DNA from: Escherichia coli
Lineage (GTDB): Bacteria > Pseudomonadota > Gammaproteobacteria > Enterobacterales > Enterobacteriaceae
DNA: 64,000 nucleotides
Strand: one strand, 5' to 3'
NCBI RefSeq assembly: GCF_030384885.1
Contig: NZ_CP128615.1
The translations under genes and the position numbers were made by a program. Every line of letters begins with the position of its first letter. Positions within the stretch are counted from its first letter, which is position 1. Shown one piece after another: positions 3,506 to 34,715 of this stretch. Under the pieces are notes generated by a model. The model did no database searches. It was not told the DNA's origin and saw only the letters and a list, made by a program, of their open reading frames with translations.

Positions 3506-3547
3506 TCCCGTAATAATTTCCGTGACGGAGACGACAGACATGAATGG

Positions 3548-14758: not shown

Positions 14759-14773
14759 ATGATCTTGCGCCTC

Positions 14774-16537
14774 TTATTCTGTCTCTACGCTGTTTGCGGG
14801 TTGTAATGCGGTTCTAATGCGGGCAAGCAGTGTTTCCTGACGCTCGCGGTAAAAGTCCATAAACTGGTTTAGTTGTTCAGGTAATGATGTTATGGCTTGC
14901 GATTGCAGATGTGCTTGTCTTGCATTCACATCAGGCCACTGCTGCGCATACCATTCATGGGGCATTTTTTGCCGCTTCTGGTTGTTGATTGTCCCTTCCA
15001 ACAGTTGAAGGTTTGGCAGCTTGTTAGATGCCTCGATGAGTTCATCTAGCTGTTCAGCTGGGACACCAACTTTTGCAAGCTTGTTACGCGTAAACAAACC
15101 TTTGGGGTAAATGTGGTCCACATGAAAGTGTCGTGAAAAATCGAATCCTGGGAACAACAAAGTCAACAAGGCAAAGGTACGCGGATTACCATAATCCAAC
15201 TGCGCTAGTTCACTAATTTCCTCTGGGTCAAAGCGCAACGATTTACCACGCTGTTGCATGGTCGCTTCAATTTTCGCTAGCGGGAAACCCGTATCACCCG
15301 ATTGTTTAATGTCTGAGCGAAGCATAGTAAGCAGGGTATCCAAACCACTTCCCCAGATGCCTGACGCTTTCAACAACGACCTAATGAGCCAGTTTCTGAT
15401 GCATTCTCTATCGACCGCATATTCAACCCTAGAAAGGTAGCTTGCCGTTAACTTTCGGTGGTGCAGGTAATAGGCTAACGGGAGGATGGCACTTGTTGCT
15501 CTGAGGTTTTGTGCATTAAAACCAAAACTTGCCAGCAACTGCATTGAGAGCAATAACGCATCACGAATTGGCGTCCAGTTCTTTTCGAGAATCGCCATAT
15601 TTTCCTTGTTAAAGTTCTCAACCTTAAAGCCCACGCTACCGATGTCAGAGAGCATTAAGCCTGCTTTTAAAACGAGATCTTTTGATACGTTGAATCCATC
15701 ACCAACACGGTTCATCTCATCCACTAAGGCATGAATTTCTTCACGGGCATCTAACGAGCTCCACTGCGCTACGGCTATTGAAAGTAGTAAGTCTGAGTAG
15801 GACAAAGTAGTGCCGCCGCTATTCATGCGGATAAAGATATTCAGAACACGTTCAAGGCTCTGATCACTTTCTTCGTAAAACGAAATCTTATCTTTGTCAT
15901 GGATAGTTCGATACAAGTGACGAAGAGTTGAGCGAGCCTCTTTGCGTTGCTCCGAGCTCAACCTAGCATCATCAGCAACTTCATCGATAAGTGCATCTTC
16001 TTCCTCTTCCATGATCCGGCCTACACGGAACCAGTATTGTTCAGATGCATCCAAAGAGGCTTTATCGTCGGTTAGGAACTCAAAGTCATACATCGACCCA
16101 GTTTCTAAGTCGGGCTGGCTTAACAGATTTAAGTGAAGCCTGCGCACTGGGAAGGCGTCATCATTGCTCCACCATTTACCTGTCAGCTTCCACGCAAATG
16201 AGCCGCGTAGGCCGATGTTCAAAGCGGTAATCCGCTGCTGTCCATCTAGGACGGCAATGAACTCACGCTCTGGTAACTGAGTGACATTTTCACAATGGTA
16301 GTTATCTCGCTCATGGTAATGCTGCATGAACTGATAAAACTGATAGCTATGCCGGTTCTCTGGTTTTATCTTCCAGAATAGAAAGGTCCCAAACGGGTAA
16401 CCTTGCAACAGGCTATCAAATAGACGACAGATCTGTTCTGGTCGCCATACAAACTCTCGCTGGATGGCCGGTAACAGGTATTCCTGCTCAGCAACCTTGT
16501 CGAGTAATGATCTTATTGTTCCACCCGCTTGATACAT
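14774..16537 (-). CDS. GmrSD-family type IV restriction endonuclease (DUF262 + DUF1524; BrxU-like) embedded in BREX locus
   Basis: 587-aa ORF; N-terminal IQREFVW and DGQQR (DUF262/ParB-like) motifs, C-terminal HxxH-type HFHVDHIYPK (DUF1524 His-Me finger). Confidence 0.8.
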   Translation of the reverse strand: MYQAGGTIRSLLDKVAEQEYLLPAIQREFVWRPEQICRLFDSLLQGYPFGTFLFWKIKPENRHSYQFYQFMQHYHERDNYHCENVTQLPEREFIAVLDGQQRITALNIGLRGSFAWKLTGKWWSNDDAFPVRRLHLNLLSQPDLETGSMYDFEFLTDDKASLDASEQYWFRVGRIMEEEEDALIDEVADDARLSSEQRKEARSTLRHLYRTIHDKDKISFYEESDQSLERVLNIFIRMNSGGTTLSYSDLLLSIAVAQWSSLDAREEIHALVDEMNRVGDGFNVSKDLVLKAGLMLSDIGSVGFKVENFNKENMAILEKNWTPIRDALLLSMQLLASFGFNAQNLRATSAILPLAYYLHHRKLTASYLSRVEYAVDRECIRNWLIRSLLKASGIWGSGLDTLLTMLRSDIKQSGDTGFPLAKIEATMQQRGKSLRFDPEEISELAQLDYGNPRTFALLTLLFPGFDFSRHFHVDHIYPKGLFTRNKLAKVGVPAEQLDELIEASNKLPNLQLLEGTINNQKRQKMPHEWYAQQWPDVNARQAHLQSQAITSLPEQLNQFMDFYRERQETLLARIRTALQPANSVETE

Positions 16538-16553
16538 AGTTATCCGTTGCCTC

Positions 16554-19500
16554 TTACTTAATTCTTACTCGGTCGCCAGCTTTGACCGCAGCAATCAGCT
16601 GCTCTCTTAAAGCGGCAAGATAGGCATCAACTTCGGCTTCACTTTCAATGAATCCGGTTGTTACTGACTTAGCCATGGCATCGGTTGAGTTAATCGTTAC
16701 GGTACGTTTTGCAACCGGCTGTGGCTGCACTGGTTCAGAGGCTGGCTCAGGTGCTGGAGCTGCTTTACCGGCTTTCGCTGCTTCCTCTTCGCGTGTCTGC
16801 TGTTCGAGTTCACGACGTCTTTGCTCAGCTTCAGCTTTTTTGCGTTGATCTTCGATAAAGCCATTCAGCAACTCATAGGCTTCGTCCTCGTAACCTTCCG
16901 CTTCAGTTTGCTCACTGATAATTTGTGGTATTGAAGAGGTCGCTTCAATACGCTGTCTGCACATTTGTAACGGGCGCAGTGCTTGGTTCTGTAATTCAGA
17001 CGGTGCATGAGCTTCAGCTAGCGCTTCTTTTACACGTCCGATGCGCAGATCAACACGCTCTAAGGCATGAGTGCGTTTTTCTTCAACCAATGTTGAGTTA
17101 ATTTTTGCCACCTGCTCGATAAGCGGATTAATGTGGCGCAGCTGCTCATACGGCGAGGGCATATTGTAAATGCGTTCTAATTCAGTGAGCGCTTTTAATG
17201 CTTCACTGTCTTTTTCTAACGCAGGTCTATTGGCCTTAAACTTCTCGTTCAATGCGCCAGCAAGGGCTTGCCAAGTTTGAAATTGGCTATTGTAGAAGTC
17301 ATCAAGATCCTCAAAGTCCTCAGCAAACTCTTCAAGGGCATCAGCGTTTTCTAAGAATCGGGTGATAAGAGCGAAGCTTGAAGTTTGCTCAAGAATACCC
17401 GCGACCAATGCAAGACCATCGTCAATTTGAGATTTACCTGGGAAATGGCCTGTCTGTGACTTGGTTCTGAATGATTTAAGCTCTTCATTCCAAGCCAGTA
17501 ATTCATCGCGCACTAATTCGTAGAGCTCCTTTTCACCAGAGCCGGTAAAGGTTTTTGAAAAGATCTCTTTAACAAGACCAGCAGCCTTTTTGATTTGGCG
17601 CTCGTCATGTTGCCTGATTTTATGTACACGGATCTCACCGCGTTTACGCACGCTGGTAAACGGCTCGTAAGCTTTTTTCAACGCCAGATCTGTGCCCTGG
17701 GTACTAAAAGATAACTTTCCAGCCAAGCCCAGCCTTGCAGTGAGCAATAAGATTTCATTGTCTGGCCAGCCATACGGGCGCTTGCCGAAGTGGGCAACGA
17801 TGTCACGTAAGTAAACAGGCTCATTACGCTCGACTTTTAGCGTTACGTACTGCTCAACCTCACGCGTAGCTTCTGGGTTACATTCATCCGCTTGAAGATC
17901 CAGTCCAATCTGAGCAATATCATCAGCAACAAGTACGGCCTGTAGCTCACGCAAAACTTCACCAGGCGTCGCCTTGAGCATGTTCAATTTAGCGAAGGTG
18001 TTTTCGATAACGTATTTGTATGCTTCTTCGACGATGGCACTTGGCGTTGCTGATTTCTTCGGTAGTTTTGTGCCGATAGCGTAAACGTCAGCCTCTGCAA
18101 ACAAAGCTTCAAAATCCGTTCTTAAGCGTTTTTCACGCTCAATATTTTCCATCTGCTTTTCGCGGAGAAGGTGTTCTTGCTCTGGTCGCTGTCCTGAATT
18201 TTGTTTTAAGAATCGGTCAGTTTTTATAAAGGTTGTCAGGTCATCCCAAAGACGTTTATGTTCGCCCAGCTTGACGAGCACGCACCCATCAGCCTCAAGC
18301 GTATGATTGATGCAGGCTTGATCGTGGGAGTAATTTTCAAAGTGCGAATCCAAAGGTGAAATGACTTTAATGACTAGATCTTCCAGCGTGGTGCCATCTT
18401 TTGGATGACCATTGCAAAAACGGCTCACCGCAAAGTCTTGCTTATTAATCGGGTATCGATAGGCACGATTACCTTTCAAAATACCGTCAAATACGATTGC
18501 TGAAAGCTTGTTAGAGACCTCTGACATTTCAACGTCAGTGTGGCGGATCTCGTTTTCAATCTCTTTTTCTTCGTTGGTCAGGAAGATAAATTCATCACCA
18601 TTACGCGCAATCAGCAATTGGCGTTCAAGACGATTCAAGCTCTCTTCAATTTGTTTACGCAGCGCAATTTTATCTGCATCGATTCGATCAATTGACAGCG
18701 TCACAAGGTTGTCTAGTGTGCTTTTGACAACGTCCACATAACGGATCAAGAAAAGAGTTTTTAGAATCTTGCCATCGAATTCTGTTAAGGAATCCAACTC
18801 ACAGGCTTGGTCAATCGTTCGCTTAACCGCTGGCTCCAAAAAGCTTTCAATCGGTGCATAGAAACTGTAAAACGGGATTAACACATCAAGGCCAGAGTCC
18901 TTCATCTGTTTTGCAGCTGATTGGAAAGCATCAAGTAATGAACGCTCACCCATGGCTAAGTGCTTACCCGTCGCGCCTTTTGTTCGAATTGACTCAAACA
19001 CTTTTTGAACCAGCGTGTAGTGGTAAGGCACAAACGGATAGTTGTCCACGAAAGACGGAGCGTCGGTGTAGCCCTTTAGAGACGCAGTTGTCGTTTTATC
19101 AAATGTCAGCTGGTTACGAAGAATGTCGCCCTTTTCAGCAAACACATCGATGAGGTGTGTACGAGCTTCTTCCGTTTTGGACAACAAACGCTTTTGAATA
19201 ACTTCCGAGGTATTCGAGCTCGACAGCTGCAAGCGGGTACTAAAACGCCCTTGAATTTTAGAGAAGTCCTCGCCATCGCGCTTATCCATACCACCAATGG
19301 CAGCATCAATGTCTGCCTGAGAGGTAACAACGACCCAAGCTCTGCCACCACAATATGTGCCAAGATCTTCAGTAATGGTCTGAAGCTTCAACATCATTTG
19401 TGTGTTCTTACCGATAAACTGACCGACTTCATCGACTAAGAAAAGAAGGTTACGATCTCCAGTTCGATCTAAGTATTCATTAACCCACTTACAGAAGTTT

Positions 19501-20231
19501 CGGATATCTAGCGGGAAATTGTTTTCAACCTGTTCAACCCACGCTTTGGCAGACTCTAATGATTGCTCACTGGCATGAGCGAGTGCTTCTGAAAGTTCGT
19601 CTCGATAGAAGTCATAGGCGTCACGCTCCTTTTCCCAAGTTGATTGAGTCAACTCAGCAAATTTGTCCTTGAAAGACATGTATTGATTACGCTTATCAAG
19701 CTCGCGTTCTAAATGCGCAATGTGAGGAAAATCAGCGCAGTATCCTACACGCTCATTAAAGACTTTGAGGAAGACCTTAAGAATGGCATTTTCTCGGTCA
19801 TCCGTATTGGCTCGTGAATCGATGTTAAAAAGAATAACATCAGTGTCTTTGGTAACAGCGTTTTGGATATCGGCCAACAGCATGGCATCGTTGATTTTGT
19901 CTTTAAAAAACTCAAATGCTTGACGGCCTTGGCCATCCTTTTCGACAGACTTATTTTCGAGGAGGTAAGACAAAATTTTCAGGAAGTGAGACTTACCCGA
20001 ACCAAAGAAGCCAGAGATCCACACACCAATTTTTCCTGACATTGATGCGCCACTTTGCGTCACAGATGGAACGTAAGCCTCAAAGAAAGCGCGAAAATGT
20101 CGATCTAGCTCTCGGGTTACAACATACTCATCAAGTTCGACATACACACTGTCATTGTCTTTCTGTTCCGCTTTAACAACGCCGTTAATATCACGCGTCA
20201 ACTTCTTGGAAAAAATCTGTTCAATTTTCAT
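16554..20231 (-). CDS. brxC: BREX BrxC (large P-loop ATPase)
   Basis: 1225-aa ORF; Walker A GFFGSGKSH; position downstream of brxB. Confidence 0.9.
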   Translation of the reverse strand: MKIEQIFSKKLTRDINGVVKAEQKDNDSVYVELDEYVVTRELDRHFRAFFEAYVPSVTQSGASMSGKIGVWISGFFGSGKSHFLKILSYLLENKSVEKDGQGRQAFEFFKDKINDAMLLADIQNAVTKDTDVILFNIDSRANTDDRENAILKVFLKVFNERVGYCADFPHIAHLERELDKRNQYMSFKDKFAELTQSTWEKERDAYDFYRDELSEALAHASEQSLESAKAWVEQVENNFPLDIRNFCKWVNEYLDRTGDRNLLFLVDEVGQFIGKNTQMMLKLQTITEDLGTYCGGRAWVVVTSQADIDAAIGGMDKRDGEDFSKIQGRFSTRLQLSSSNTSEVIQKRLLSKTEEARTHLIDVFAEKGDILRNQLTFDKTTTASLKGYTDAPSFVDNYPFVPYHYTLVQKVFESIRTKGATGKHLAMGERSLLDAFQSAAKQMKDSGLDVLIPFYSFYAPIESFLEPAVKRTIDQACELDSLTEFDGKILKTLFLIRYVDVVKSTLDNLVTLSIDRIDADKIALRKQIEESLNRLERQLLIARNGDEFIFLTNEEKEIENEIRHTDVEMSEVSNKLSAIVFDGILKGNRAYRYPINKQDFAVSRFCNGHPKDGTTLEDLVIKVISPLDSHFENYSHDQACINHTLEADGCVLVKLGEHKRLWDDLTTFIKTDRFLKQNSGQRPEQEHLLREKQMENIEREKRLRTDFEALFAEADVYAIGTKLPKKSATPSAIVEEAYKYVIENTFAKLNMLKATPGEVLRELQAVLVADDIAQIGLDLQADECNPEATREVEQYVTLKVERNEPVYLRDIVAHFGKRPYGWPDNEILLLTARLGLAGKLSFSTQGTDLALKKAYEPFTSVRKRGEIRVHKIRQHDERQIKKAAGLVKEIFSKTFTGSGEKELYELVRDELLAWNEELKSFRTKSQTGHFPGKSQIDDGLALVAGILEQTSSFALITRFLENADALEEFAEDFEDLDDFYNSQFQTWQALAGALNEKFKANRPALEKDSEALKALTELERIYNMPSPYEQLRHINPLIEQVAKINSTLVEEKRTHALERVDLRIGRVKEALAEAHAPSELQNQALRPLQMCRQRIEATSSIPQIISEQTEAEGYEDEAYELLNGFIEDQRKKAEAEQRRRELEQQTREEEAAKAGKAAPAPEPASEPVQPQPVAKRTVTINSTDAMAKSVTTGFIESEAEVDAYLAALREQLIAAVKAGDRVRIK

Positions 20232-20249
20232 TCGGGAGGCTCCCTGCTC

Positions 20250-20843
20250 TTAATTTTTTTTACCGTCTTCAGGCACAAGCTTGAAGGCGCGATAGTAGTT
20301 TTTAGATTCGATCATGCCGAAAGGATGCAAATCCCTTCCGCTATATTCACCCGGATAGAAAAGCACTAATGGCGTGCTACCCATAACGTCTTGCAGAGCA
20401 CTAAGTAACTCATGTCCTCGGATAAGAGGCCACGCACTGCCTAAGCCTGACAGCAACACAAACTCAAGTTCTGATGGCTTATATTTGTCCGCGATATACC
20501 TTGCCACTTTCTCTTGGCTCAGAGGCCCGGCTAGTGTTTTTCGAAGGCCATCAACACCGACTTGCAATTCACGCTGGCAAGCTCGGTCGAAAAGGCCTCG
20601 CTCCTCAAGCATATCTATCAAGACTTCAAAAATATTGAGATGGACAAAGCGGTAACCACGCTTGTTGAGTTTTTCGTCAACGTGCTTAATGTGCTCTCGT
20701 ACAAGCAGTTCATACTTGGCTGGATAGTCAAATACCCAAAATCCAATTTCATTGCCCAAGCCATCGTTTTTCAAAAACTTAGGGCTTTCAATTCGTTCCA
20801 GTATCAGATCAAGCCTGGTCTGAAGAGCCTTCATATTGTGCAC
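20250..20843 (-). CDS. brxB: BREX BrxB (DUF1788)
   Basis: 197-aa ORF immediately upstream of brxC, overlapping brxA; size and position typical. Confidence 0.8.
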   Translation of the reverse strand: MHNMKALQTRLDLILERIESPKFLKNDGLGNEIGFWVFDYPAKYELLVREHIKHVDEKLNKRGYRFVHLNIFEVLIDMLEERGLFDRACQRELQVGVDGLRKTLAGPLSQEKVARYIADKYKPSELEFVLLSGLGSAWPLIRGHELLSALQDVMGSTPLVLFYPGEYSGRDLHPFGMIESKNYYRAFKLVPEDGKKN

Positions 20844-21430
20844 TCCATTACCTCAATCAAATCTTCCCGGCCCAGACGAACTAACCAGTCTTTAACTTCT
20901 GGCATTAGGTAAACAGGTTGTATTTTCTTTGTCCTGCTATCACTCAGGTAGCCACTATCAACCAGTGCCTTAATTGCGTTGTTACCCATTTTTTTGACAG
21001 TTGAGTCAGAAAAACCGCCAAGCTCAGCATATGCCCGCACTCTCGTGTCATAAAACTCAGACCATGCATCAGCGGTTAAAGAGGGTTTATAGGTGCGACG
21101 AGCTTCGGCTAAGGTAAGTCGCATAAAATAAGCGACAACCGGAGAATGAATGAGTAATGACATCATCAGCATTTGGACATAGGCACGTTCACTCGCGGCT
21201 AAAAGATCAGTCATAAACTCATCACCCAGGCCTTCAATACGCCAACGGATTGTTCTGGCATAACGAATAGCCGTCTGACCGGATTTTTTCTGAAGAACAT
21301 TTTGCTCAACGATCAGCGACTTCCACTCATCTTCTGGAAGTTTTTTCAATAGCGATTCTGCGATTATTCTAGATTCAGTTATCAATAAACTGCCTCCGAT
21401 AAGATCGCCTAAATATTCTTTTATATTCAT
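20831..21430 (-). CDS. brxA: BREX BrxA (DUF1819)
   Basis: 199-aa ORF first structural gene of operon; size and position typical. Confidence 0.8.
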   Translation of the reverse strand: MNIKEYLGDLIGGSLLITESRIIAESLLKKLPEDEWKSLIVEQNVLQKKSGQTAIRYARTIRWRIEGLGDEFMTDLLAASERAYVQMLMMSLLIHSPVVAYFMRLTLAEARRTYKPSLTADAWSEFYDTRVRAYAELGGFSDSTVKKMGNNAIKALVDSGYLSDSRTKKIQPVYLMPEVKDWLVRLGREDLIEVMECTI

Positions 21431-21439
21431 AAATTCATC

Positions 21440-22366
21440 TCACGATTCGCTATATCCAGGAGCGAGTGCAGCATTGTCAACGCCGTATAGTGCTTCTGGA
21501 TTTTTAAGTGCTAAATGGAACTCTCGCCCATTGCTCTTACAATTCTTTGAACAATCGATATTCCATAAACGCAGTAAATATCCAGCGAACGCAGCTCTTA
21601 TCTCTACACGCAACCTATTGTTTTCCATTGCGTAGTCCATCGATACAGCTTCTGGATGTGCTAGTTTTGGATGAGGTATCAGCTCTAGCTCAACGATTCG
21701 GTTCCATTGCTTATCCCACTGAAGAGTCTCAACTTCGTCGTTAACCTCATCCTCTAACAACTCAACTTCACTTATTCTGGTTAAAACAAAATCCCTAAAT
21801 TCTCTAAGCTTTCTATCGAATGCTCGGACATGCCATCTCAAGCCATTGTCAATCAGGGTATGAGGAACTATTTGCCTGCTCCCATGACCACTCGACAATG
21901 AGGTGTACTCAATATTAATCACAGCGCGCTTATGTATGGCTTCACTAATAGCCGCTACAACTTCCAATTTCGGCTTATTGAGATGGAATGGTGCTTCACA
22001 AGCCATAGGTGGCCTGGCCTTGCCAAGAAAGCCATCACCGAACCCTTGGCTTATCGTCGCAAGAGTTCGAACAACGTCATAATCAAACAACGGCTGGAAT
22101 GCGCTCGTCTTCAAGTGCACTCTGCGCTTTTCGTCATACATAACGTTGTTAGGAGCCAACTCTTTGTACCGCGCAAAATCTTGTGTTGCCACAGACGGCG
22201 CTACGCTAAATCGCTCGGTTAAATAACTACGCCCAGCTTCACCTTTAAATAACAAAGTGAAATCAATATGAGCGAGTCGTTCTCTCTGTGCTTGGCTAAG
22301 CTCTTCAAGTCCAGTGTTGTCTTGCACTGTCAGCCTCTCAATCCATCTGGGACAAGCCCTAATCAT
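21440..22366 (-). CDS. brxR: BrxR-type WYL-domain transcriptional regulator
   Basis: 308-aa ORF upstream of brxA; WYL-like core (RWHVRAFDRKLREFRDF); true start may be an internal Met. Confidence 0.75.
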   Translation of the reverse strand: MIRACPRWIERLTVQDNTGLEELSQAQRERLAHIDFTLLFKGEAGRSYLTERFSVAPSVATQDFARYKELAPNNVMYDEKRRVHLKTSAFQPLFDYDVVRTLATISQGFGDGFLGKARPPMACEAPFHLNKPKLEVVAAISEAIHKRAVINIEYTSLSSGHGSRQIVPHTLIDNGLRWHVRAFDRKLREFRDFVLTRISEVELLEDEVNDEVETLQWDKQWNRIVELELIPHPKLAHPEAVSMDYAMENNRLRVEIRAAFAGYLLRLWNIDCSKNCKSNGREFHLALKNPEALYGVDNAALAPGYSES

Positions 22367-22685
22367 TTAAAACTAGGAAGCCATCGATTGAATGCCATCA
22401 AGCAACCTACTTTTTTTCATTAGGTATCATAGTATCAACAAGTCGTCTTGTTGGCTATAAAAATTGGCTTGACGTTGTTCGAATGTTTCTTTTCTGGCCT
22501 TGATAGAAGCTCACGCTGGAATGCCAACTGACGCAATTCATTCTCTCGAACACGCCTAGCAACTTCTGCCTGGGCTGGTAGCTGATCTTGACCCTCCATC
22601 TCCGAACAGCTTTTGTATCTTAAGTTAACGATGTCCGCTGCCGCCGGTATTCCCTCGGGGAGTGATATCCCAGCGCGCTGTGCGG

Positions 22686-22961
22686 GTGGCTTCCATTTCC
22701 ATCAGATGTCCTTCCTGCTCCGCTACTGAAGGCGTGGTGCGTAACGGCAAAAGCACTGCCGGACATCAGCGCTATCTCTGCTCTCACTGCCGTAAAACAT
22801 GGCAACTACAGTTCACTTACACCGCCTCTCAGCCCGGTACGCACCAGAAAATCATTGATATGGCCATGAATGGCGTTGGATGCCGGGCAACCGCCCGCAT
22901 TATGGGCGTTGGCCTCAACACGATTTTACGTCACTTAAAAAACTCAGACCGCAGTCGGTAA
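22686..22961 (+). CDS. insA: IS1 InsA
   Basis: [37 protein letters not shown]...; GTG start; the ORF-track Met at 22662 lies outside IS1. Confidence 0.85.
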
Positions 22962-23383
22962 CCTCACGCATACAACCGGGCAGTGACGTCATTGTTTGCG
23001 CGGAAATGGACGAACAGTGGGGTTATGTCGGCGCTAAATCACGCCAGCGCTGGTTGTTTTACGCGTATGACAGGATACGGAGGACGGTTGTGGCGCACGT
23101 ATTCGGTGAACGCACGTTGTCCACGCTGGAGCGTCTTCTGGGCCTGCTGTCGGCCTTTGAGGTCGTGGTATGGATGACGGATGGCTGGCCGCTTTATGAA
23201 TCACGCCTGAAGGGAGAACTGCACGTTATCAGCAAGCGATATAAGCAGCGCATTGAGCGGCATAACCTGAATCTGAGGCAGCATCTGTCAAGGCTGGGCA
23301 GGAAGTCACTGTCGTTCTCAAAATCGGTGGCGCTGCATGACAAAGTCATCGGGCATTATCTGAACATAAAACACTATCAGTAA
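22880..23383 (+). CDS. insB: IS1 InsB (expressed as InsAB fusion by frameshifting)
   Basis: 167-aa [29 protein letters not shown]... Confidence 0.85.
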
Positions 23384-23590
23384 GTTGGAGTCATTACCTT
23401 CTTTGCCGCCGGACATTGTCCGGCGCAACACCAAACCGGTCTGGCGGGCTGAGCCAATCCCGCAGGCAAATTCAGCCCTTACCGGATGGCTCAGCCCCCT
23501 ACTCATTGGAATTGGATATTCAACTTTCAGGGGCTACTGCGCCAGACTTCAGTCTTTAAAGTGATTGACTTAGCGCCTGGCACACTCAAT

Positions 23591-23902
23591 TTATTTAGGT
23601 AGCGGGCCTAATTGCACCCCATCAGGATAATACTTCCAGCCATCGCGAATTTTGACATTTTCATCCCACGGAAGTTTGTATTCGCCATTGGCAAGATCGC
23701 GCACCCAGGTCAGGTAATTCTCGCGTTCGCCTCCCGGTTTGCCGACATAGCCCCGGCAGCCAAGGTTGAAAATATTGTTTTCCAACGCCCAGTTTTCACG
23801 CGCTTTATCCACCAGGCGCGGGAACAGCTCTGCGGTAACAATTTCCCATGGGTTGCGGTGCCCCTGCTGAATGACGTTACCGTCATAATTGCAGACCGTA
23901 CC
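23591..23902 (-). pseudogene. 3' fragment of an unidentified gene, N-terminally truncated by IS903
   Basis: C-terminal ORF ...[58 protein letters not shown] abuts the IS903 IR at 23903. Confidence 0.4.
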
Positions 23903-24959
23903 GGCTTTGTTGAATAAATCGAACTTTTGCTGAGTTGAAGGATCAGATCACGCATCCTCCCGACAACACAGACCATTCCGTGGCAAAGCAAAAGTTCAGA
24001 ATCACCAACTGGTCCACCTACAACAAAGCTCTCATCAACCGTGGCTCCCTCACTTTCTGGCTGGATGATGGGGCGATTCAGGCCTGGTATGAGTCGGCAA
24101 CGCCTTCATCACGGGGAAGGCCCCAGCGCTATTCTGACCTTGCCATCACGACTGTGCTGGTCATTAAACGCGTATTCAGGCTGACCCTGCGCGCTGCGCA
24201 GGGCTTTATTGATTCCATTTTTACACTGATGAATGTTCCGTTGCGCTGCCCGGATTACAGCTGTGTCAGCAGGCGGGCAAAGTCGGTTAACGTCAGTTTC
24301 AAAACGTTCACCCGGGGTGAAATCGCGCATCTGGTGATTGATTCCACCGGGCTGAAGGTCTTTGGTGAAGGCGAGTGGAAAGTCAAAAAGCATGGCCAGG
24401 AACGCCGTCGTATATGGCGAAAGTTGCATCTGGCAGTTGACAGCAACACACATGAAATCATCTGTGCAGACCTGTCGCTGAACAATGTGACGGACTCAGA
24501 AGCCTTCCCGGGTCTTATCCGGCAGACTCACAGAAAAATCAGGGCAGCATCGGCAGACGGCGCTTACGACACCCGGCTCTGTCACGATGAACTGCGGCGT
24601 AAGAAAATCAGCGCGCTTATCCCTCCCCGAAAAGGTGCGGGTTACTGGCCCGGTGAATATGCAGACCGTAACCGTGCAGTGGCTAATCAGCGAATGACCG
24701 GGAGTAATGCGCGGTGGAAATGGACAACAGATTACAACCGTCGCTCGATAGCGGAAACGGCGATGTACCGGGTAAAACAGCTGTTCGGGGGTTCACTGAC
24801 GCTGCGTGACTACGATGGTCAGGTTGCGGAGGCTATGGCCCTGGTACGAGCGCTGAACAAAATGACGAAAGCAGGTATGCCTGAAAGCGTGCGTATTGCC
24901 TGAAAACACAACCCGCTACGGGGGAGACTTACCCGAAATCTGATTTATTCAACAAAGCC
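23903..24959 (+). mobile_element. IS903-like (IS5 family) copy 1, 1057 bp, intact
   Basis: 18-bp IRs GGCTTTGTTGAATAAATC at both ends; no 9-bp target duplication. Confidence 0.9.
23935..24903 (+). CDS. IS903-like DDE transposase
   Basis: 322-aa ORF ...[28 protein letters not shown]... Confidence 0.9.
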
Positions 24960-25112
24960 AGATGGAATAGCCCCGCTCGGTGATTTGGCGGACAGCTTCT
25001 TCCTTAAATTCAGGGGTAAAACGTGGTGTGCCCATAGACTATGACCTGCTCCCCGTTGATTAGTACACCCCGATGTTAGTAATGTCTTCATAAGCCACAT
25101 GAGGACATCCCC

Positions 25113-25376
25113 ATGAAGAAGCGTTTTTCCGACGAACAGATCATCAGTATTCTCCGCGAAGCCGAAGCTGGGGTACCCGCCCGTGAACTCTGCCGCAAGC
25201 ATGCCATTTCCGATGCCACGTTTTACACCTGGCGTAAGAAGTATGGCGGTATGGAGGTGCCTGAAGTTAAGCGCCTGAAGTCGCTTGAGGAAGAGAACGC
25301 CAGACTCAAGAAGCTGCTTGCCGAAGCCATGCTGGATAAAGAGGCGCTTCAGGTGGCTCTTGGGCGAAAGTACTGA
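25113..25376 (+). CDS. IS3-family transposase OrfA
   Basis: 87-aa ORF MKKRFSDEQIISILREAEAGVPARELCRKHAISDATFYTWRKKYGG... Confidence 0.85.
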   Translation: MKKRFSDEQIISILREAEAGVPARELCRKHAISDATFYTWRKKYGGMEVPEVKRLKSLEEENARLKKLLAEAMLDKEALQVALGRKY

Positions 25377-25399
25377 CGACAGACCAGAAGCGGGAAGCC

Positions 25400-25624
25400 G
25401 TGATGCTGATGTGTGATGCGACCGGTCTGTCGCAACGTCGTGCCTGCAGGCTTACAGGTTTGTCCCTGTCGACCTGCCGCTATGAGGCTCACCGTCCGGC
25501 TGCTGATGCGCATTTATCAGGGCGCATCACTGAGCTGGCACTGGAGCGCAGGCGTTTTGGCTACCGTCGTATTTGGCAATTGCTGCGCCGTGAAGGGCTT
25601 CATGTTAATCATAAGCGCGTGTAG
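25400..25624 (+). pseudogene. IS3-family transposase OrfB, N-terminal fragment only
   Basis: 74-aa ORF ending at the truncation point. Confidence 0.7.
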
Positions 25625-25873
25625 TGATGCGGACTACGACGTGCGTTTGGTCCAGGACTGCTGCTACGACCCGGATCGGGATGCCCACGAAGCTCTGTTG
25701 CGTTCCGGGTTCGGCGGACGTGTACAGGTCGTGTAATTTTCGGGCCTCGCATGATCGCGGCCATAGCCGCAGGTGGATTGGTGCGAGGCAGGGCCAGTCC
25801 AAGTCAGGGTGCGGTCATCGCGGCGCCTGCAACTCTCAAAAACCCATCGCCGTAGCGGAGGTCTTGTAATCGC

Positions 25874-26758
25874 ATGTCATTACGCACGCCCGATTTATTG
25901 TTCACAGCGATAGCACCTGCCATTTGGGGCAGCACCTACATTGTCACCACCCAATACCTGCCGAACTTCTCACCGATGACGGTCGCGATGCTGCGGGCGT
26001 TGCCGGCGGGTTTATTGCTCGTGATGATCGTCCGACAGATTCCAACGGGAATCTGGTGGATGCGCATCTTCATCCTCGGCGCACTTAATATTTCGCTATT
26101 CTGGAGCTTGTTGTTTATTTCGGTCTACCGCCTGCCGGGCGGGGTCGCGGCGACGGTAGGCGCTGTGCAGCCGCTGATGGTCGTGTTCATCTCTGCCGCT
26201 CTGCTAGGTAGCCCGATACGATTGATGGCGGTCCTGGGGGCTATTTGCGGAACTGCGGGCGTGGCGCTGTTGGTGTTGACACCAAACGCAGCGCTAGATC
26301 CTGTCGGCGTCGCAGCGGGCCTGGCGGGGGCGGTTTCCATGGCGTTCGGAACCGTGCTGACCCGCAAGTGGCAACCTCCCGTGCCTCTGCTCACCTTTAC
26401 CGCCTGGCAACTGGCGGCCGGAGGACTTCTGCTCGTTCCAGTAGCTTTAGTGTTTGATCCGCCAATCCCGATGCCTACAGGAACCAATGTTCTCGGCCTG
26501 GCGTGGCTCGGCCTGATCGGAGCGGGTTTAACCTACTTCCTTTGGTTCCGGGGGATCTCGCGACTCGAACCTACAGTTGTTTCCTTACTGGGCTTTCTCA
26601 GCCCGGGGACCGCCGTGTTGCTAGGATGGTTGTTCTTGGATCAGACGCTGAGTGCGCTTCAAATCATCGGCGTCCTGCTCGTGATCGGGAGTATCTGGCT
26701 GGGCCAACGTTCCAACCGCACTCCTAGGGCGCGTATAGCTTGCCGGAAGTCGCCTTGA
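25874..26758 (+). CDS. EamA/DMT-family transporter (PecM-like)
   Basis: 294-aa multi-TM ORF adjacent to tetA(A), as in Tn1721. Confidence 0.8.
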   Translation: MSLRTPDLLFTAIAPAIWGSTYIVTTQYLPNFSPMTVAMLRALPAGLLLVMIVRQIPTGIWWMRIFILGALNISLFWSLLFISVYRLPGGVAATVGAVQPLMVVFISAALLGSPIRLMAVLGAICGTAGVALLVLTPNAALDPVGVAAGLAGAVSMAFGTVLTRKWQPPVPLLTFTAWQLAAGGLLLVPVALVFDPPIPMPTGTNVLGLAWLGLIGAGLTYFLWFRGISRLEPTVVSLLGFLSPGTAVLLGWLFLDQTLSALQIIGVLLVIGSIWLGQRSNRTPRARIACRKSP

Positions 26759-26789
26759 CCCGCATGGCATAGGCCTATCGTTTCCACGA

Positions 26790-27989
26790 TCAGCGATCGG
26801 CTCGTTGCCCTGCGCCGCTCCAAAGCCCGCGACGCAGCGCCGGCAGGCAGAGCAAGTAGAGGGCAGCGCCTGCAATCCATGCCCACCCGTTCCACGTTGT
26901 TATAGAAGCCGCATAGATCGCCGTGAAGAGGAGGGGTCCGACGATCGAGGTCAGGCTGGTGAGCGCCGCCAGTGAGCCTTGCAGCTGCCCCTGACGTTCC
27001 TCATCCACCTGCCTGGACAACATTGCTTGCAGCGCCGGCATTCCGATGCCACCCGAAGCAAGCAGGACCATGATCGGGAACGCCATCCATCCCCGTGTCG
27101 CGAAGGCAAGCAGGATGTAGCCTGTGCCGTCGGCAATCATTCCGAGCATGAGTGCCCGCCTTTCGCCGAGCCGGGCGGCTACAGGGCCGGTGATCATTGC
27201 CTGGGCGAGTGAATGCAGAATGCCAAATGCGGCAAGCGAAATGCCGATCGTGGTCGCGTCCCAGTGAAAGCGATCCTCGCCGAAAATGACCCAAAGCGCG
27301 GCCGGCACCTGTCCGACAAGTTGCATGATGAAGAAGACCGCCATCAGGGCGGCGACGACGGTCATGCCCCGGGCCCACCGGAACGAAGCGAGCGGGTTGA
27401 GAGCCTCCCGGCGTAACGGCCGGCGTTCGCCTTTGTGCGACTCCGGCAAAAGGAAACAGCCCGTCAGGAAATTGAGGCCGTTCAAGGCTGCCGCGGCGAA
27501 GAACGGAGCGTGGGGGGAGAAACCGCCCATCAGCCCACCGAGCACAGGTCCCGCGACCATCCCGAACCCGAAACAGGCGCTCATGAAGCCGAAGTGCCGC
27601 GCGCGCTCATCGCCATCAGTGATATCGGCAATATAAGCGCCGGCTACCGCCCCAGTCGCCCCGGTGATGCCGGCCACGATCCGCCCGATATAGAGAACCC
27701 AAAGGAAAGGCGCCGTCGCCATGATGGCGTAGTCGACAGCAGCGCCGGCCAGCGAGACGAGCAAGACCGGCCGCCGCCCGAAACGATCCGACAGCGCGCC
27801 CAGCACAGGTGCGCAGGCAAATTGCATCAACGCATACAGCGCCAGCAGAATGCCATAGTGGGCGGTGACGTCGTTCGAGTGAACCAGATCGCGCAGGAGG
27901 CCCGGCAGCACCGGCATAATCAGGCCGATGCCGACAGCGTCGAGCGCGACAGTGCTCAGAATTACGATCAGGGGTCTGTTGGGTTTCAC
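26790..27989 (-). CDS. tetA: tetracycline efflux MFS transporter TetA(A)
   Basis: 399 aa from GTG start (VKPNRPLIVILSTVALDAVGIGLIMPVLPGLL...); the ORF-track start at 28064 is an upstream extension. Confidence 0.9.
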   Translation of the reverse strand: MKPNRPLIVILSTVALDAVGIGLIMPVLPGLLRDLVHSNDVTAHYGILLALYALMQFACAPVLGALSDRFGRRPVLLVSLAGAAVDYAIMATAPFLWVLYIGRIVAGITGATGAVAGAYIADITDGDERARHFGFMSACFGFGMVAGPVLGGLMGGFSPHAPFFAAAALNGLNFLTGCFLLPESHKGERRPLRREALNPLASFRWARGMTVVAALMAVFFIMQLVGQVPAALWVIFGEDRFHWDATTIGISLAAFGILHSLAQAMITGPVAARLGERRALMLGMIADGTGYILLAFATRGWMAFPIMVLLASGGIGMPALQAMLSRQVDEERQGQLQGSLAALTSLTSIVGPLLFTAIYAASITTWNGWAWIAGAALYLLCLPALRRGLWSGAGQRADR

Positions 27990-28094
27990 GTCTGGCCTCC
28001 GGACCAGCCTCCGCTGGTCCGATTGAACGCGCGGATTCTTTATCACTGATAAGTTGGTGGACATATTATGTTTATCAGTGATAAAGTGTCAAGC

Positions 28095-28745
28095 ATGACA
28101 AAGTTGCAGCCGAATACAGTGATCCGTGCCGCCCTGGACCTGTTGAACGAGGTCGGCGTAGACGGTCTGACGACACGCAAACTGGCGGAACGGTTGGGGG
28201 TTCAGCAGCCGGCGCTTTACTGGCACTTCAGGAACAAGCGGGCGCTGCTCGACGCACTGGCCGAAGCCATGCTGGCGGAGAATCATACGCATTCGGTGCC
28301 GAGAGCCGACGACGACTGGCGCTCATTTCTGATCGGGAATGCCCGCAGCTTCAGGCAGGCGCTGCTCGCCTACCGCGATGGCGCGCGCATCCATGCCGGC
28401 ACGCGACCGGGCGCACCGCAGATGGAAACGGCCGACGCGCAGCTTCGCTTCCTCTGCGAGGCGGGTTTTTCGGCCGGGGACGCCGTCAATGCGCTGATGA
28501 CAATCAGCTACTTCACTGTTGGGGCCGTGCTTGAGGAGCAGGCCGGCGACAGCGATGCCGGCGAGCGCGGCGGCACCGTTGAACAGGCTCCGCTCTCGCC
28601 GCTGTTGCGGGCCGCGATAGACGCCTTCGACGAAGCCGGTCCGGACGCAGCGTTCGAGCAGGGACTCGCGGTGATTGTCGATGGATTGGCGAAAAGGAGG
28701 CTCGTTGTCAGGAACGTTGAAGGACCGAGAAAGGGTGACGATTGA
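28095..28745 (+). CDS. tetR: tetracycline repressor TetR(A)
   Basis: MTKLQPNTVIRAALDLLNEVGVDGLTTRKLAERLGVQQPALYWHF...; divergent from tetA. Confidence 0.9.
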   Translation: MTKLQPNTVIRAALDLLNEVGVDGLTTRKLAERLGVQQPALYWHFRNKRALLDALAEAMLAENHTHSVPRADDDWRSFLIGNARSFRQALLAYRDGARIHAGTRPGAPQMETADAQLRFLCEAGFSAGDAVNALMTISYFTVGAVLEEQAGDSDAGERGGTVEQAPLSPLLRAAIDAFDEAGPDAAFEQGLAVIVDGLAKRRLVVRNVEGPRKGDD

Positions 28746-29043
28746 TCAGGACCGCTGCCGGAGCGCAACCCACTCACTACAGCAGAGCCATGTAGACAAC
28801 ATCCCCTCCCCCTTTCCACCGCGTCAGACGCCCGTAGCAGCCCGCTACGGGCTTTTTCATGCCCTGCCCTAGCGTCCAAGCCTCACGGCCGCGCTCGGCC
28901 TCTCTGGCGGCCTTCTGGCGCTCCTGCTGCGGCGTCCGCTCGTGGGCCGTGGCGCGGGTCCGCGCGCCGGCCTCGTGCGCCTGGCGCTCGCGGGCGAGGT
29001 CCAGGGCGGCCGTCTTCACGTTCTGCCTTGCGCAGATGAGATA

Positions 29044-29081
29044 GGGGAGCCCGCAGAATTCGGAAAAAATCGTACGCTAAG
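29044..29081. repeat. Tn1721 internal 38-bp inverted repeat
   Basis: GGGGAGCCCGCAGAATTCGGAAAAAATCGTACGCTAAG, overlapping tnpA stop. Confidence 0.8.
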
Positions 29082-32043
29082 GTTTTCCGGGCATCCGTAA
29101 GGGCCGAAACTTCCCGTCTTCCAGTCTGCGGCTCTGCCGCCAGACGTAATCGCCGGTTAGGTTGATGTGCTCCCAGCCCAGCGGCGACAGGAATTGCAGC
29201 AGCTCGCCGTCCACCGGCTTGCCGGCCTCGACCAACCCCTGGGTGGCGCGTTCCAGGTACACCGTGTTCCACAGCACGATAGCCGCCGTCACCAGGTTGA
29301 GGCCGCTGGCCCGGTAGCGCTGCTGCTCGAAGCTCCGATCCCTGATTTCCCCAAGGCGGTTGAAGAACACCGCCCTGGCCAGCGAGTTGCGCGCCTCACC
29401 TTTGTTCAGGCCGGCATGCACGCGGCGGCGCAGTTCAACACTTTGCAGCCAGTCCAGGATGAACAGCGTGCGCTCGATCCGGCCCAGCTCGCGCAGGGCC
29501 ACGGCCAGTCCGTTCTGGCGCGGGTAGCTGCCGAGCTTGCGCAGCATCAGCGAGGCGGTGACGGTGCCCTGCTTGATCGAGCTGGCCAGGCGCAGGATGT
29601 CGTCCCAGTGGGCACGCACGTGCTTGATGTTCAGGGTGCCGCCGATCAGCGGGCGCAACGTCGGGTAGGCTTGCACGCCCTGCGGCACGTACAGCTTGGT
29701 TTCGCCGAGGTCGCGGATGCGCGGCGCGAAGCGGAAGCCTAGCAGGTGCATCAGGGCAAAGACGTGATCGGTGAAGCCGGCCGTGTCGGTGTAGTGCTCC
29801 TCGATCCGCAGGTCGGACTCGTGGTACAGCAGGCCGTCGAGCACATAGGTGGAATCGCGGACGCCGACATTCACCACGCGGGTGCTGAACGGCGCGTACT
29901 GGTCGGAGATATGGGTATAGAACAGCCGTCCCGGCTCGCTACCGTACTTCGGGTTGACGTGCCCGGTGCTCTCGCCCCGGCCACCCGCGCGGAAGCGCTG
30001 GCCATCGGAGGATGAGGTCGTGCCGTCGCCCCAGTGGGCGGCAAAGGCGTGGCGATACTGGTGGTTGACCAGCTCGGCCAAGGCCGCCGAATAGGTTTCG
30101 TCGCGGATGTGCCAGGCTTGCAGCCAGGACAGCTTGGCGTAGGTCAGGCCGGGGCTCGACTCGGCCATCTTGGTCAGCCCGAGGTTGATCGCATCACCGA
30201 GGATTGCGGACAGCAGCAACGTCCTGTCTTTGGCCTCGGCCCCGTCCTTCAAGTGGGTGAAGTGGCGGCTGAAGCCCGTCCAGTCGTCCACGTCCATCAG
30301 CAGTTCGGTGATCTTGATGCGCGGCAGTAACTGGCTGGTTTGGTCGATCAGCGCCTGCGCCCGATCCGGCACCGCCGCATCCAGCGGGGTGATTTTCAGC
30401 CCTGACTCGGTGAGGATGGCATCGGGCAGCTCGTTGTCCTTGGCCAGGCGGGTGACGGTGGCCAACTGCTCGTCCAGCAGCTGCAAACGCTCTTCCAGGT
30501 ACTGGTCGCTGTTCGGGTTGATCGCCAGGGGCAGGGCCTGCTCGCGCTTGAGTGCGGCGAACTTCTCGGCCGGCAGCAGGTAGTCGTCGAAGTCGCGGAA
30601 CTGCCGCGAGCCCTTGACCCAGATGTCGCCGGAGCGCAGGGCGTTCTTCAGCTCGGACAGGGCGCAGATTTCGTAGAATTTCCGGTCGAGGCCTTCCGGG
30701 GTGATCACCAGCGGCTTCCAGCGCGGCTTGATGAAGGCCGTGGGTGCATCGGCCGGCACCTTGCGCAGGTTGTCGGCGTTCATCTCACGCAGGGTCTGCA
30801 CGGCTGCCAGCACGCCTTGCGCGGCCGGCGCGGCGCGCAGTTCCAGCACCTCCAGCAAGGCCGGCGTGTAACGGCGCAGGGTGGCGAAGTTCTCGCCGAC
30901 CAGGTGCAGGTGGTCGAAGCCTTCCGGCCGGGCCAGCAGCTCGGCCTCGCTGACGCTCTCGGTGAACTCGTCCCAGGGAATCACCGCCTCGATGGCGGCA
31001 TAGGGGTCGCTGCCGCTTTCCTTCGCTTCCAGCAGCGCCTGGCCGATCCTGGAGTACAGGCGCACCTTGTCGTTGATCGCCTTGCCCTGCTTCTGGAACT
31101 GCTGCTGATGCTTGTGCTTCGCGCCGCTGAACAGCTTGACCAGGATGCGGTCATGCAGATCGACCAGCTCATCGATCACGGTCGCGGTGCTCTCCAGCAC
31201 CACGGCGGCCAGGGTCGCGTAGCGGCGCTGCGGCTCGAACTTACCGAGGTCTTTGGGCGTCATCTGCCCACCCTCGCGGGCCAGCTTGAGCAGGCGGTTC
31301 TGGTGGATGTGCCGGCCCAGGCCTTCGGGCAAGTCCACCAACTGAAATGTCTTCAGCCGCTCGATGTGTTCCAGCATGTGCCGAGAGTTGGGTTTCAGCG
31401 GTGCCTGGCGCAGCCAGGTCAACCAGGTGATGCTGCTGCCGGCCTTGAGCTTCAACAGCTCGTCCAGCTTGGCCCGATGCGAGTCCGTGAGTGGTTCGAC
31501 CAGGGCGCGGTAGACCCGCCGATTGGCTCGCGCAATGGCTTCCGAGCAGGCCCGGTCAATCACGCTCAGCGCCGGCAGGATGCGTCGTTTCTGCCGTAGG
31601 CTCTCCAGGGCCTGACCGGCCAGCAGCAAGCCTTTGTCGGTCTGCTGGGCCAGCTCGGTTAGCTCGCGCACCAGGGCGCGGAAGTCGGACAGGCCGAACG
31701 GGGCCAGTTGCAGGTAGGTGCGCAGTTCCTGGGCATGCTCGCGACGGGTCACGTCGCGCTCGCCGTACTTTGCCCAGCTCGCCGGCTCGGCCTGGACTTG
31801 CTTCGCCACCCACAGGATGACCGGCTCGGGCAGCTCGCTGTCGGTTCCCAGCGCGTAACCGGGGTAGCGCAGCAGGCAGAGCTGCACGGCGAAGCCGAGG
31901 CGGTTGGCGTCGCCGCGTCGCTGGCGGATCAGCGACAGGTCGGAGTCGTTGAAGGTGTAGTAGCGGATCAGGTCATCCTGGCTTTCCGGCAGCGCAAGCA
32001 GGGTGTCCCGCTCCGTGGCCGAGAGGATCAAGCGACGCGGCAT
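29077..32043 (-). CDS. tnpA: Tn3-family transposase TnpA (Tn1721-type)
   Basis: 988-aa ORF; C-terminal ...[17 protein letters not shown] motif. Confidence 0.9.
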
Positions 32044-32046
32044 GTG

Positions 32047-32607
32047 TCAGTCGTCCGTGCGGAGGTACTGGTAGAGGGTTTCCCGGCTGATGTTGAACTC
32101 GCGGGCAAGCTGCGCCTTGGGCTCGCCGGCCGTCGCTCGCTGCCGCAGGGTAGCAGCCTGCTCATCGGACAGGGCTTTCTTGCGGCCCCGGTACGCGCCA
32201 CGCTGCTTGGCCAAGGCGATGCCCTCACGCTGCCGCTCGCGGATCAGGGCGCGCTCGAACTCAGCGAAGGCCCCCATCACCGACAGCATCAGGTTGGCCA
32301 TCGGCGAGTCCTCGCCAGTGAACACCAGGCCCTCCTTCAGGAACTCGATGCGCACGCCGCGCTGAGTCAGCTTCTGTACCAAGCGACGCAGGTCATCGAG
32401 GTTGCGGGCCAGCCGATCCATGCTGTGCACCACCACTGTATCGCCTTCGCGGACGAAGCTCAGCAGCGCTTCGAGCTGGGGGCGCTGGGTGTCCTTGCCC
32501 GATGCCTTGTCGGTGAACACCTTGCTCACCTGGGTTTGTTCCAGCTGGCGTTCCGGGTTCTGGTCAAAGCTGCTGACCCGGACGTAGCCGATGCGGTGCC
32601 CCTGCAC
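32047..32607 (-). CDS. tnpR: serine resolvase TnpR
   Basis: 186-aa ORF MQGHRIGYVRVSSFDQNPERQ... with catalytic Ser and C-terminal HTH. Confidence 0.9.
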   Translation of the reverse strand: MQGHRIGYVRVSSFDQNPERQLEQTQVSKVFTDKASGKDTQRPQLEALLSFVREGDTVVVHSMDRLARNLDDLRRLVQKLTQRGVRIEFLKEGLVFTGEDSPMANLMLSVMGAFAEFERALIRERQREGIALAKQRGAYRGRKKALSDEQAATLRQRATAGEPKAQLAREFNISRETLYQYLRTDD

Positions 32608-32800: not shown

Positions 32801-32915
32801 GCAACCCTTAACTTGCTTGCACCTATCGTTTCCATGCTAGCTTTATCGTAACGCTCAAGAAATTGGGCTTAATGCCGAAAACAATAAAATAAAACAGCCA
32901 ACCCTTGAGGTTCTT

Positions 32916-34681: not shown

Positions 34682-34715
34682 CTTAATTTCAGTATCTGTT
34701 ATTACAGTTGGGTAT

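Follow-up and report, generated by a model that had tools for sequence, protein, structure and literature searches.

IS1 remnants beside a BREX island and a Tn1721/tet(A) segment in an IncR-type multiresistance plasmid of Escherichia coli: probable scars of older rearrangements

Introduction

The insertion sequence IS1 promotes adjacent deletions and, where these are mediated by its transposase, the deletion begins at an intact end of IS1 and leaves the element whole. The promoter of IS1 is located within the left inverted repeat (IRL). A BREX defence island with BrxU and BrxR has been described from plasmid pEFER of Escherichia fergusonii (Picton et al., PMC8565348, PMC9122601), and the -10 box of PbrxR, together with the BrxR operator R-BOX1, was mapped experimentally to nt 12,801-12,870 of that plasmid (Picton et al., PMC9122601).

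The sequence studied here (the window) is a stretch of 64,000 nt from E. coli (contig NZ_CP128615.1), and represents an IncR-type multiresistance plasmid related to NZ_CP024857.1. The plasmid is a patchwork of IS903 copies, IS1, Tn1721, Tn5393 and IS3-family fragments, and NZ_CP024857.1 and NZ_CP123330.1 each share only part of the window. An earlier note on this DNA, made from the sequence alone, had drawn attention to two incomplete copies of IS1, one beside a BREX island and the other near tet(A), and had attributed the present form of both the BREX promoter flank and the tet(A) region to deletions mediated by IS1.

Compared with the pEFER island, the window shows the same gene order and retains the mapped PbrxR/R-BOX1 region. 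The part compared (nt 17900-22582) is 97% identical to pEFER and 99.4% identical to PCN061p6, but an intact 105-aa ORF and ~1.2 kb of pEFER are replaced in the window by a block of IS remnants. This block has a counterpart in Klebsiella plasmids, at a site between clpK and the amiF-urtEDCBA cluster, with which it shares the same junction and the same IS1 right flank. In the window, however, the clpK side is replaced on the left by the brxR upstream region, and IS903 has left only 310 bp of amiF. The truncated IS1 within the block shares insA, the A6C site, the insB' frame and the 23-bp right inverted repeat (IRR) with the IS1 family (92-95% identity over 713 bp), but is without positions 1-55 (IRL and promoter) and so has a single end. 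With the classical IS1-mediated adjacent deletion it has in common the presence of IS1 sequence at the deletion boundary; unlike such a deletion, which would have its endpoint at an intact terminus of a whole IS1, the break here is at IS1 position 56, that is, 55 bp inside the element. The second site resembles the insertion of a Tn3-family transposon (Tn1721, Tn5393, Tn3 class) into a resident IS, as IS1 ends exactly where a 38-bp inverted repeat (IR) begins with GGGG, and the 3' end of tnpA lies beyond this IR. It differs in that the transposon is itself truncated after ~360 bp, and no second half of the IS1 bearing the expected 5-bp duplication was found. The two sites are very probably independent, immobile scars of old rearrangements, and not products of IS1 activity in this plasmid.

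Results and Discussion

The truncated IS1 and its left junction

Table 1. Positions of the features discussed in the text (coordinates are those of the window).
Feature	Position (nt)	Strand	Remarks
brxR (WYL regulator) upstream region	22367-22582	-	210/216 identical to pEFER
BrxR operator R-BOX1 equivalent	22402-22428	-	coordinates mapped from PMC9122601
IS3-family right-end remnant	22583-22689	-	107/107 identical to two intact copies (L006, L007)
IS3-family/IS1 crossover	22686-22689		GTGG, common to both parents; three-way alignment
Truncated IS1	22686-23398	+	IS1 positions 56-768; alignment and NCBIfam transpos_IS1 matches
insA	22686-22961	+	intact frame, InsA of 91 aa
insB' frame	22880-23383	+	open, InsB' of 167 aa
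IRR of truncated IS1	23376-23398	+	23 bp; sole terminal repeat of this copy
amiF-locus fragment	23399-23902	-	downstream spacer and last ~310 bp of amiF (23592-23901)
IS903	23903-24959	+	1,057 bp; truncates amiF
ISSen4-like IS3-family left part	25042-25623	+	582 bp, truncated, joined to Tn1721 interior
Tn1721-derived segment	25624-34682		partial cysteine hydrolase gene, pecM-like transporter, tet(A), tetR, tnpA, tnpR, mcp
Tn1721 left inverted repeat	34645-34682		complete, 38 bp; 34 bp from IS1 fragment
Left flank of IS1 fragment	34683-34716		34 bp, original flank; conserved in IncR-lineage plasmids; Tn1721 abuts
IS1 left-end fragment	34717-34788	+	72 bp, IS1A positions 1-72, 100% identical
IRL of IS1 fragment	34717-34739	+	terminal-repeat scan
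Tn3-family terminal IR and tnpA 3' end	34789-35148	-	IR at 34789-34826; tnpA truncated at ~35148
Complete IS1	47012-47779	-	768 bp; both IRs (47012-47034, 47757-47779); only complete copy in the window

The IS1 copy beside the BREX island, placed by the earlier note at nt 22682-23400 and said to lack its first ~50 bp, is real, although its limits need correction (Table 1) and the missing portion is 55 bp, including IRL and the promoter that resides there. Across the note as a whole the factual content stands, with coordinates shifted by 1-4 bp. The two coding frames of the truncated copy match the NF033558 transpos_IS1 profile with E values of 1.8e-41 and 1.4e-25, the A6C motif for -1 frameshifting is present (as TTAAAAAAC), and at the same coordinates of related records PGAP annotates an IS1 transposase with a frameshift. 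The copy begins exactly at the GTG start codon of insA (nt 22686), because the tetranucleotide GTGG happens to lie at the junction.

A scan of the whole window for IS1 terminal repeats, using a degenerate pattern with at most 3 mismatches, returned four sites only (23376-23398, 34717-34739, 47012-47034 and 47757-47779) where 0.01 were expected by chance. The pattern of IS1 remnants is real and far beyond chance. None of these sites is near 22630-22685, and nt 22631-22685 match IS1 positions 1-55 at 18 of 55 bases, which is about the chance level. An inverted-repeat search of nt 22300-23700 gave no partner for the IRR, and a sigma-70 consensus scan of nt 22300-23500 picked up no promoter upstream of insA. 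While a functional IS1 has two terminal IRs of ~23 bp and is bordered by a target duplication of 8-9 bp, this copy carries only the IRR, its left end being deleted. The earlier note had allowed that careful alignment might uncover a left IR at 22630-22682; there is none, and these bases belong to a run that aligns in full with an IS3-family element.

In sequence the truncated IS1 shares 658 of 713 bases (92.3%, positions 56-768) with IS1A of E. coli K-12 and 679 of 713 (95.2%) with the complete IS1 of the same plasmid, and it matches neither of the two isoforms compared, IS1A and the copy labelled IS1X3. The complete IS1 is 91.0% identical to IS1A, and the corresponding copy in NZ_CP024857.1 is labelled 'IS1X3 family' by PGAP; it is not bordered by a 9-bp target duplication (GAACTGGTT vs CGGCAGGCG). 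The best candidate for a full-length IS1 of the same isoform as the truncated copy, in NZ_CP081793.1, proved to be a mosaic that is identical to it only over positions 56-155 and is IS1A-like elsewhere.

Directly to the left lies the right end of an IS3-family element. It consists of the terminal inverted repeat, which starts TGATCTTGACC, and, from orfB (rve), the stop codon with the 22 codons before it. The translation of the minus strand at nt 22620-22688 is the exact C-terminus of the 293-aa OrfB of intact copies, in agreement with the ~20 codons of an rve-type transposase that had been noticed just outside IS1. The intact parent is ~1,336 bp long, has the termini TGATC.../...ATCA, and is annotated as 'ISEcl1-like' in one record. 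Pfam domains rve (E = 8e-17), rve_3 and HTH_21 are found in its OrfB and HTH_Tnp_1 in its OrfA; the intact relatives thus display the features of the IS3 family, namely an orfA HTH, an orfB with a DDE (rve) domain, and TG...CA termini with imperfect IRs. The window keeps the last 103-107 bp of the element, which is a remnant and not a functional member of the family.

Three-way alignment of the IS3-family parent (GTGCGGGTGGTTTTCATTGTAATG), the IS1 parent (GCTCCAGTGGCTTCCATCTCCATC) and the window (GTGCGGGTGGCTTCCATTTCCATC) places the crossover in the GTGG common to both parents, within a longer similarity of 10 out of 12 bases (GTGGyTTyCATT). It falls 55 bp from the end of IS1 and ~100 bp from that of the IS3-family element, so that neither terminus is at the junction. 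A breakpoint that is internal to both elements and associated with microhomology argues for an illegitimate deletion, and against an event driven by the IS1 transposase. Judged from these alignments, the left junction represents a microhomology-type illegitimate deletion that probably destroyed the IRL and the promoter of IS1.

Distribution of the junction and the BREX flank

A 208-bp probe centred on the IS3-family/IS1 junction was covered at 80% or more in 976 plasmids of PLSDB, and a probe over the IS1 right end and the amiF flank was covered in 925. Among the matches listed, the former are mostly large Klebsiella plasmids, and those examined are all from Klebsiella. Given this distribution, the junction was not formed in the present plasmid but predates it. 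It is base-for-base identical in K. variicola p4253-2 and K. pneumoniae pMCL-2017-T20-ESBL_1 (both IncFIB/IncFII), where the block is situated between clpK-hsp20 heat-resistance genes and an intact amiF-urtEDCBA cluster. In the majority of K. pneumoniae copies the IS3-family tail has lost a further 3 bp, GCC, which the window retains. No record was identified with the undeleted arrangement, i.e. a complete IS1 or a complete IS3-family element at the amiF site, and the near-equal counts of 976 and 925 bear on this arrangement only indirectly.

To the right of the truncated IS1, the amiF-locus fragment is 99.8% identical to p4253-2, where it is contiguous with the same truncated IS3/truncated IS1 block. 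The amiF remnant is labelled 'formamidase, partial' by PGAP in NZ_CP123330.1, and its 103-aa product returned no Pfam domains. The IS903 that truncates it is not flanked by a 9-bp target duplication (GACCGTACC vs AGATGGAAT). K. pneumoniae pIncHIA has the same BREX/IS3-family junction, but its amiF piece is 232 bp longer and ends at another IS903-like copy, from which it follows that the truncation of amiF is secondary and independent.

On the left side, a search with the 5' end of brxR plus its upstream region recovered ~50 BREX plasmids, including pEFER and PCN061p6, in which homology to the window ends exactly at nt 22582 and unrelated sequence follows (AATGGCAGC). The brxR upstream region of the window contains the 3' 148 bp of a hypothetical ORF of 105 aa that is intact in pEFER and cut at nt 22582; the continuation of the pEFER/PCN061p6 type completes this ORF (no Pfam domains) and adds ~1.2 kb without counterpart in the window. 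The segment of pEFER to which PbrxR and R-BOX1 were mapped corresponds to nt 22378-22447, ~135 bp from the IS3-family junction. The boundary of the BREX flank is thus the outermost base of the IS3-family remnant (nt 22583), not IS1. A probe for the reciprocal junction, composed of the IS3-family left end, a 15-bp putative target duplication and the pEFER continuation, found 0 records in PLSDB at 80% coverage or more, i.e. no intact IS3-family element at the BREX site.

No more than 9 PLSDB records have the BREX island joined to the scar block, and NZ_CP123330.1, from the E. coli collection, is a further case; among these plasmids are p1658/97, NZ_CP024857.1, a Raoultella IncR plasmid and K. 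pneumoniae pIncHIA. It could be argued that the truncated IS3/truncated IS1 junction arose beside BREX, perhaps in a BREX plasmid of Klebsiella, and that the ~970 Klebsiella plasmids with a clpK-side flank show the derived state; the scar would then have been generated as the BREX island was mobilised. In favour of this, the 3-bp tail deletion of most K. pneumoniae copies is missing from the window and from the BREX plasmids, whose version is therefore not the more derived, and a Klebsiella IncHI2A plasmid carries BREX together with the block and a longer piece of amiF. The tail is equally undeleted, however, in p4253-2, which has the clpK/amiF-urt context; only in that context is amiF-urt intact; and the scar accompanies BREX in 10 plasmids as against more than 900 without it. 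An origin beside BREX is consequently improbable, and the intact amiF and the record counts indicate a direction from the Klebsiella context to the BREX flank.

The 72-bp IS1 fragment and the Tn1721/tet(A) segment

The second remnant is an isolated IS1 end fused to a Tn3-family IR, as the earlier note had observed, although it is 72 bp long rather than the ~75 bp at nt 34716-34790 first given. The adjoining 38-bp IR (GGGGTCAGTTTGGATATCGAAAATTATTGTACGTTAAG) begins GGGGTCAG and ends ACGTTAAG, and beside it are the last ~110 codons of a Tn3-family tnpA (NF033527, E = 7e-33, positions 872-954 of 954). A 38-bp IR of the form GGGG...TAAG next to the 3' end of tnpA identifies the Tn3 family, of which ~360 bp remain here as a remnant. 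The IS1 fragment stops exactly at the outer G of this IR, and independent copies of related transposons start at the same base (nt 34789). Because the end of the fragment is the outer base of the IR, insertion of the transposon into IS1 is indicated, and not an IS1-driven deletion. Flank, IS1 fragment and IR with truncated tnpA occur together in 91 plasmids (at least 80% coverage), two of which, p66R and the Raoultella plasmid, were examined in detail and are both IncR. A synthetic probe for the other half of the split IS1 (the reverse-complemented IR joined to IS1A positions 68-200) gave no contiguous match; among the matches listed, eight had 96-100% coverage, each of them in two pieces 315-520 bp apart.

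NZ_CP123330.1 matches nt 19663-34682 of the window at 99.99% and diverges exactly at the outer end of the Tn1721 IR. The Tn1721 boundary is therefore a transposon end, independent of the IS1 fragment. At its other end the tet(A) module is cut at nt 25622-25624 by the interior of the ISSen4-like fragment, a junction that has no match in PLSDB but occurs in one complete E. coli plasmid. IS1 lies at neither boundary of the Tn1721/tet(A) module.

These observations bear on the proposal that the IS1 transposase, acting from IS1 ends, produced both junctions by adjacent deletion, with loss of sequence from the BREX promoter flank and from the tet(A) region. The activity itself is well established for IS1, the window contains three IS1-derived sequences, and the absence of target duplications around the complete IS1 and IS903 means that IS-associated rearrangements did occur here. 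A deletion of this type, however, keeps the IS1 end, and at the BREX side it is that very end which is missing, at a breakpoint internal to both partners and with microhomology. The BREX flank terminates at the IS3-family terminus with PbrxR/R-BOX1 intact, Tn1721 has an intact left IR and is cut at its other end by the ISSen4-like fragment, and the 72-bp fragment ends at the terminus of the Tn3-family IR. Both scars are, in addition, older than this plasmid (976 and 91 records). IS1-mediated deletion is thus highly improbable as an explanation for either region, and the view of the two sites as independent scars is preferred.

Relationship between the IS1 sequences

The two remnants have IS1 positions 56-72 in common, and differ there at 3 of 17 bases (positions 64, 65 and 70). 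The earlier note had recognised that they overlap but differ in sequence, and had assigned them to different IS1 isoforms, for which this comparison provides support. Its title, on the other hand, spoke of a matching IR 12 kb away, which is at odds both with its own reasoning and with the differences in the overlap. That the pieces are the halves of one IS1, split by an insertion or inversion, might be suggested by their common location on the plus strand and by their jointly comprising one IRL and one IRR, yet there is next to no chance of this being correct. The halves of a single split IS1 would be complementary and of the same isoform; instead there is a 17-bp overlap with three differences, the fragment is 100% of IS1A type as against 92.3% identity to IS1A for the truncated copy, each piece abuts a different foreign element, and the distributions are dissimilar (976 plasmids, mostly from Klebsiella among the matches listed, vs 91, the examined ones being IncR). 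An assembly or sequencing artefact, in the form of a chimeric join between repeats, can be dismissed as exceedingly improbable, for although IS copies are classic sites of misassembly, hundreds of complete plasmids that were sequenced independently, p1658/97 among them, show identical junctions.

The IRL of the one remnant (outer end at nt 34717) and the IRR of the other (outer end at nt 23398) have the same IS1 orientation, so that the plasmid minus the 11.3-kb segment 23399-34716 is formally bracketed by a correctly oriented pair of IS1 ends. This segment comprises the amiF fragment, IS903, the ISSen4-like fragment and Tn1721/tet(A), and intact insA-insB' frames are available on the same plasmid in both the truncated IS1 and the complete copy (47012-47779). 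Hypothetically, IS1 transposase acting in trans could use this pair of ends, leading to replicon fusions or to precise loss of the tet(A) segment. The likelihood of this is very slight, and such use is unlikely to matter.

Proposed history and significance

The following sequence of events would account for the two scars. The first (nt 22583-23902) is a 1.3-kb block in which the right end of an IS3-family element is followed by IS1 positions 56-768 and then by the 3' end of amiF. The two IS pieces were probably fused by one illegitimate deletion between internal GTGG sites, which would have removed most of the IS3-family element along with the IRL and promoter of IS1. The one-ended IS1 left behind would be unable to transpose on its own. 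This fusion was probably a single event in Klebsiella plasmids carrying clpK and amiF-urt, in which it is now widespread, and the block would later have been positioned upstream of a BREX island of the pEFER type. The join between block and island is exactly at the terminal base of the IS3-family remnant, where it cuts the 105-aa ORF ~135 bp upstream of the PbrxR/operator probe. Since the 103-bp IS3-family tail cannot itself transpose, the most likely route is that an intact IS3-family copy inserted upstream of brxR and then underwent homologous recombination with the remnant. The amiF side would have been trimmed afterwards by IS903-family elements.

For the second scar (nt 34717-34788), the simplest reading is that an IS1A-type copy was split by insertion of a Tn3-family transposon, which was itself truncated later, at ~35148. 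Tn1721 with tet(A) would have come to lie 34 bp from this scar at a later stage, with its own end intact.

A search of the literature turned up no description of these two scars. They are nevertheless already present and annotated in hundreds of public records, and are examples of ordinary, already-known plasmid mosaicism. The analysis corrects a plausible but wrong inference, that of IS1 sculpting the BREX promoter and the tet(A) region. The 1.3-kb block of IS3-family remnant, truncated IS1 and amiF fragment is a widespread lineage marker, and it traces an exchange of DNA between Klebsiella clpK/amiF-urt plasmids and BREX islands of the pEFER type. Multiresistance plasmids routinely contain such scar junctions, which have little import beyond annotation but help in reconstructing plasmid histories.

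IS1 copies and neighbouring elements

A full-length IS1 in NZ_CP081793.1 (nt 1146–1913) is a mosaic, in which positions 56–155 are identical to the isoform of the truncated IS1 and the rest is IS1A-like, resembling the E. coli K-12 isoform. This is evidence for recombination between IS1 isoforms, and since isoforms recombine, isoform typing on short fragments is unreliable.

The IS3-family element whose right-end remnant adjoins the truncated IS1 is intact in other plasmids. In the K. pneumoniae plasmid NZ_CP046950.1, which carries silE, IS1 sequence borders the intact copy (within nt 2135–4835) at both ends, one border being an IS1 copy and the other IS1 positions 268–768, and so IS1 and this element recur in entangled arrangements. 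In pCC32 (NZ_LC556211.1) the element is bracketed by a 15-bp direct repeat, GTTCGAAGATAACGC (nt 2988–3002 and 4339–4353), which is much longer than the usual IS3-family duplication of 3–5 bp, and could represent either a long target duplication or a repeat that was already there before.

Only one complete IS1 is present in the window. No 9-bp target-site duplication was found around it (flanks GAACTGGTT vs CGGCAGGCG) and, like the other IS1 pieces, it lies where sequences have been joined by recombination. The IRL of this copy starts atypically, with GATAATGGTGCC. About 350 bp away is a tandem array that may represent iterons or a centromere-like site, and a related array occurs in NZ_CP024857.1, where it gives a BLAST ladder against the window.

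Coordinates of features in the window
Feature	Position (nt)	Description
BREX type 1 island	~9000–22366	includes DUF262 gene and WYL regulator (BrxR)
R-BOX1 equivalent	22402–22428	GATACCTAATG-AAAAA-AAGTAGGTTGC
IS903	23903–24959	target duplication absent
ISSen4-like/Tn1721 junction	25622–25624	inside partial cysteine hydrolase gene
IS903 end fragment	35752–35879	128 bp; inverted copy of 24832–24959, 100% identical
Tandem array	46089–46661	37-bp unit TGGGAATCCGCCCACCTTGCCGGGCGCCGGTGCCGTG, 15.5 copies, 93% matches
Complete IS1	47012–47779

Possible inversions

Either the ISSen4-like segment or the mcp end of Tn1721 lies in the opposite orientation in the related plasmids Raoultella NZ_MT136605.1, pEFER and PCN061p6, which suggests inversions; IS903 may possibly have driven them.

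BREX island and acquisition of tet(A)

The region nt 17900–22582 shows 97% identity to pEFER and 99.4% to PCN061p6, and by such similarity the BREX island is a member of the pEFER family. Its DUF262 gene lies between brxC and pglX, a place held in pEFER by a type IV restriction gene, presumably BrxU. The equivalent of the BrxR operator, R-BOX1, departs at 3 of 27 positions from the pEFER operator that has been characterised by experiment (GAAACCTACTG-AAAAA-CAGTAGGTTGC), making its inverted repeat less symmetric.

At the tet(A) junction a truncated ISSen4-like element is joined to the interior of Tn1721. None of the 72,556 PLSDB plasmids has this junction; it does occur in a single complete E. 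coli plasmid, NZ_CP123330.1, which comes from human stool (USA). From this distribution, the acquisition of tet(A) next to BREX looks both recent and rare.
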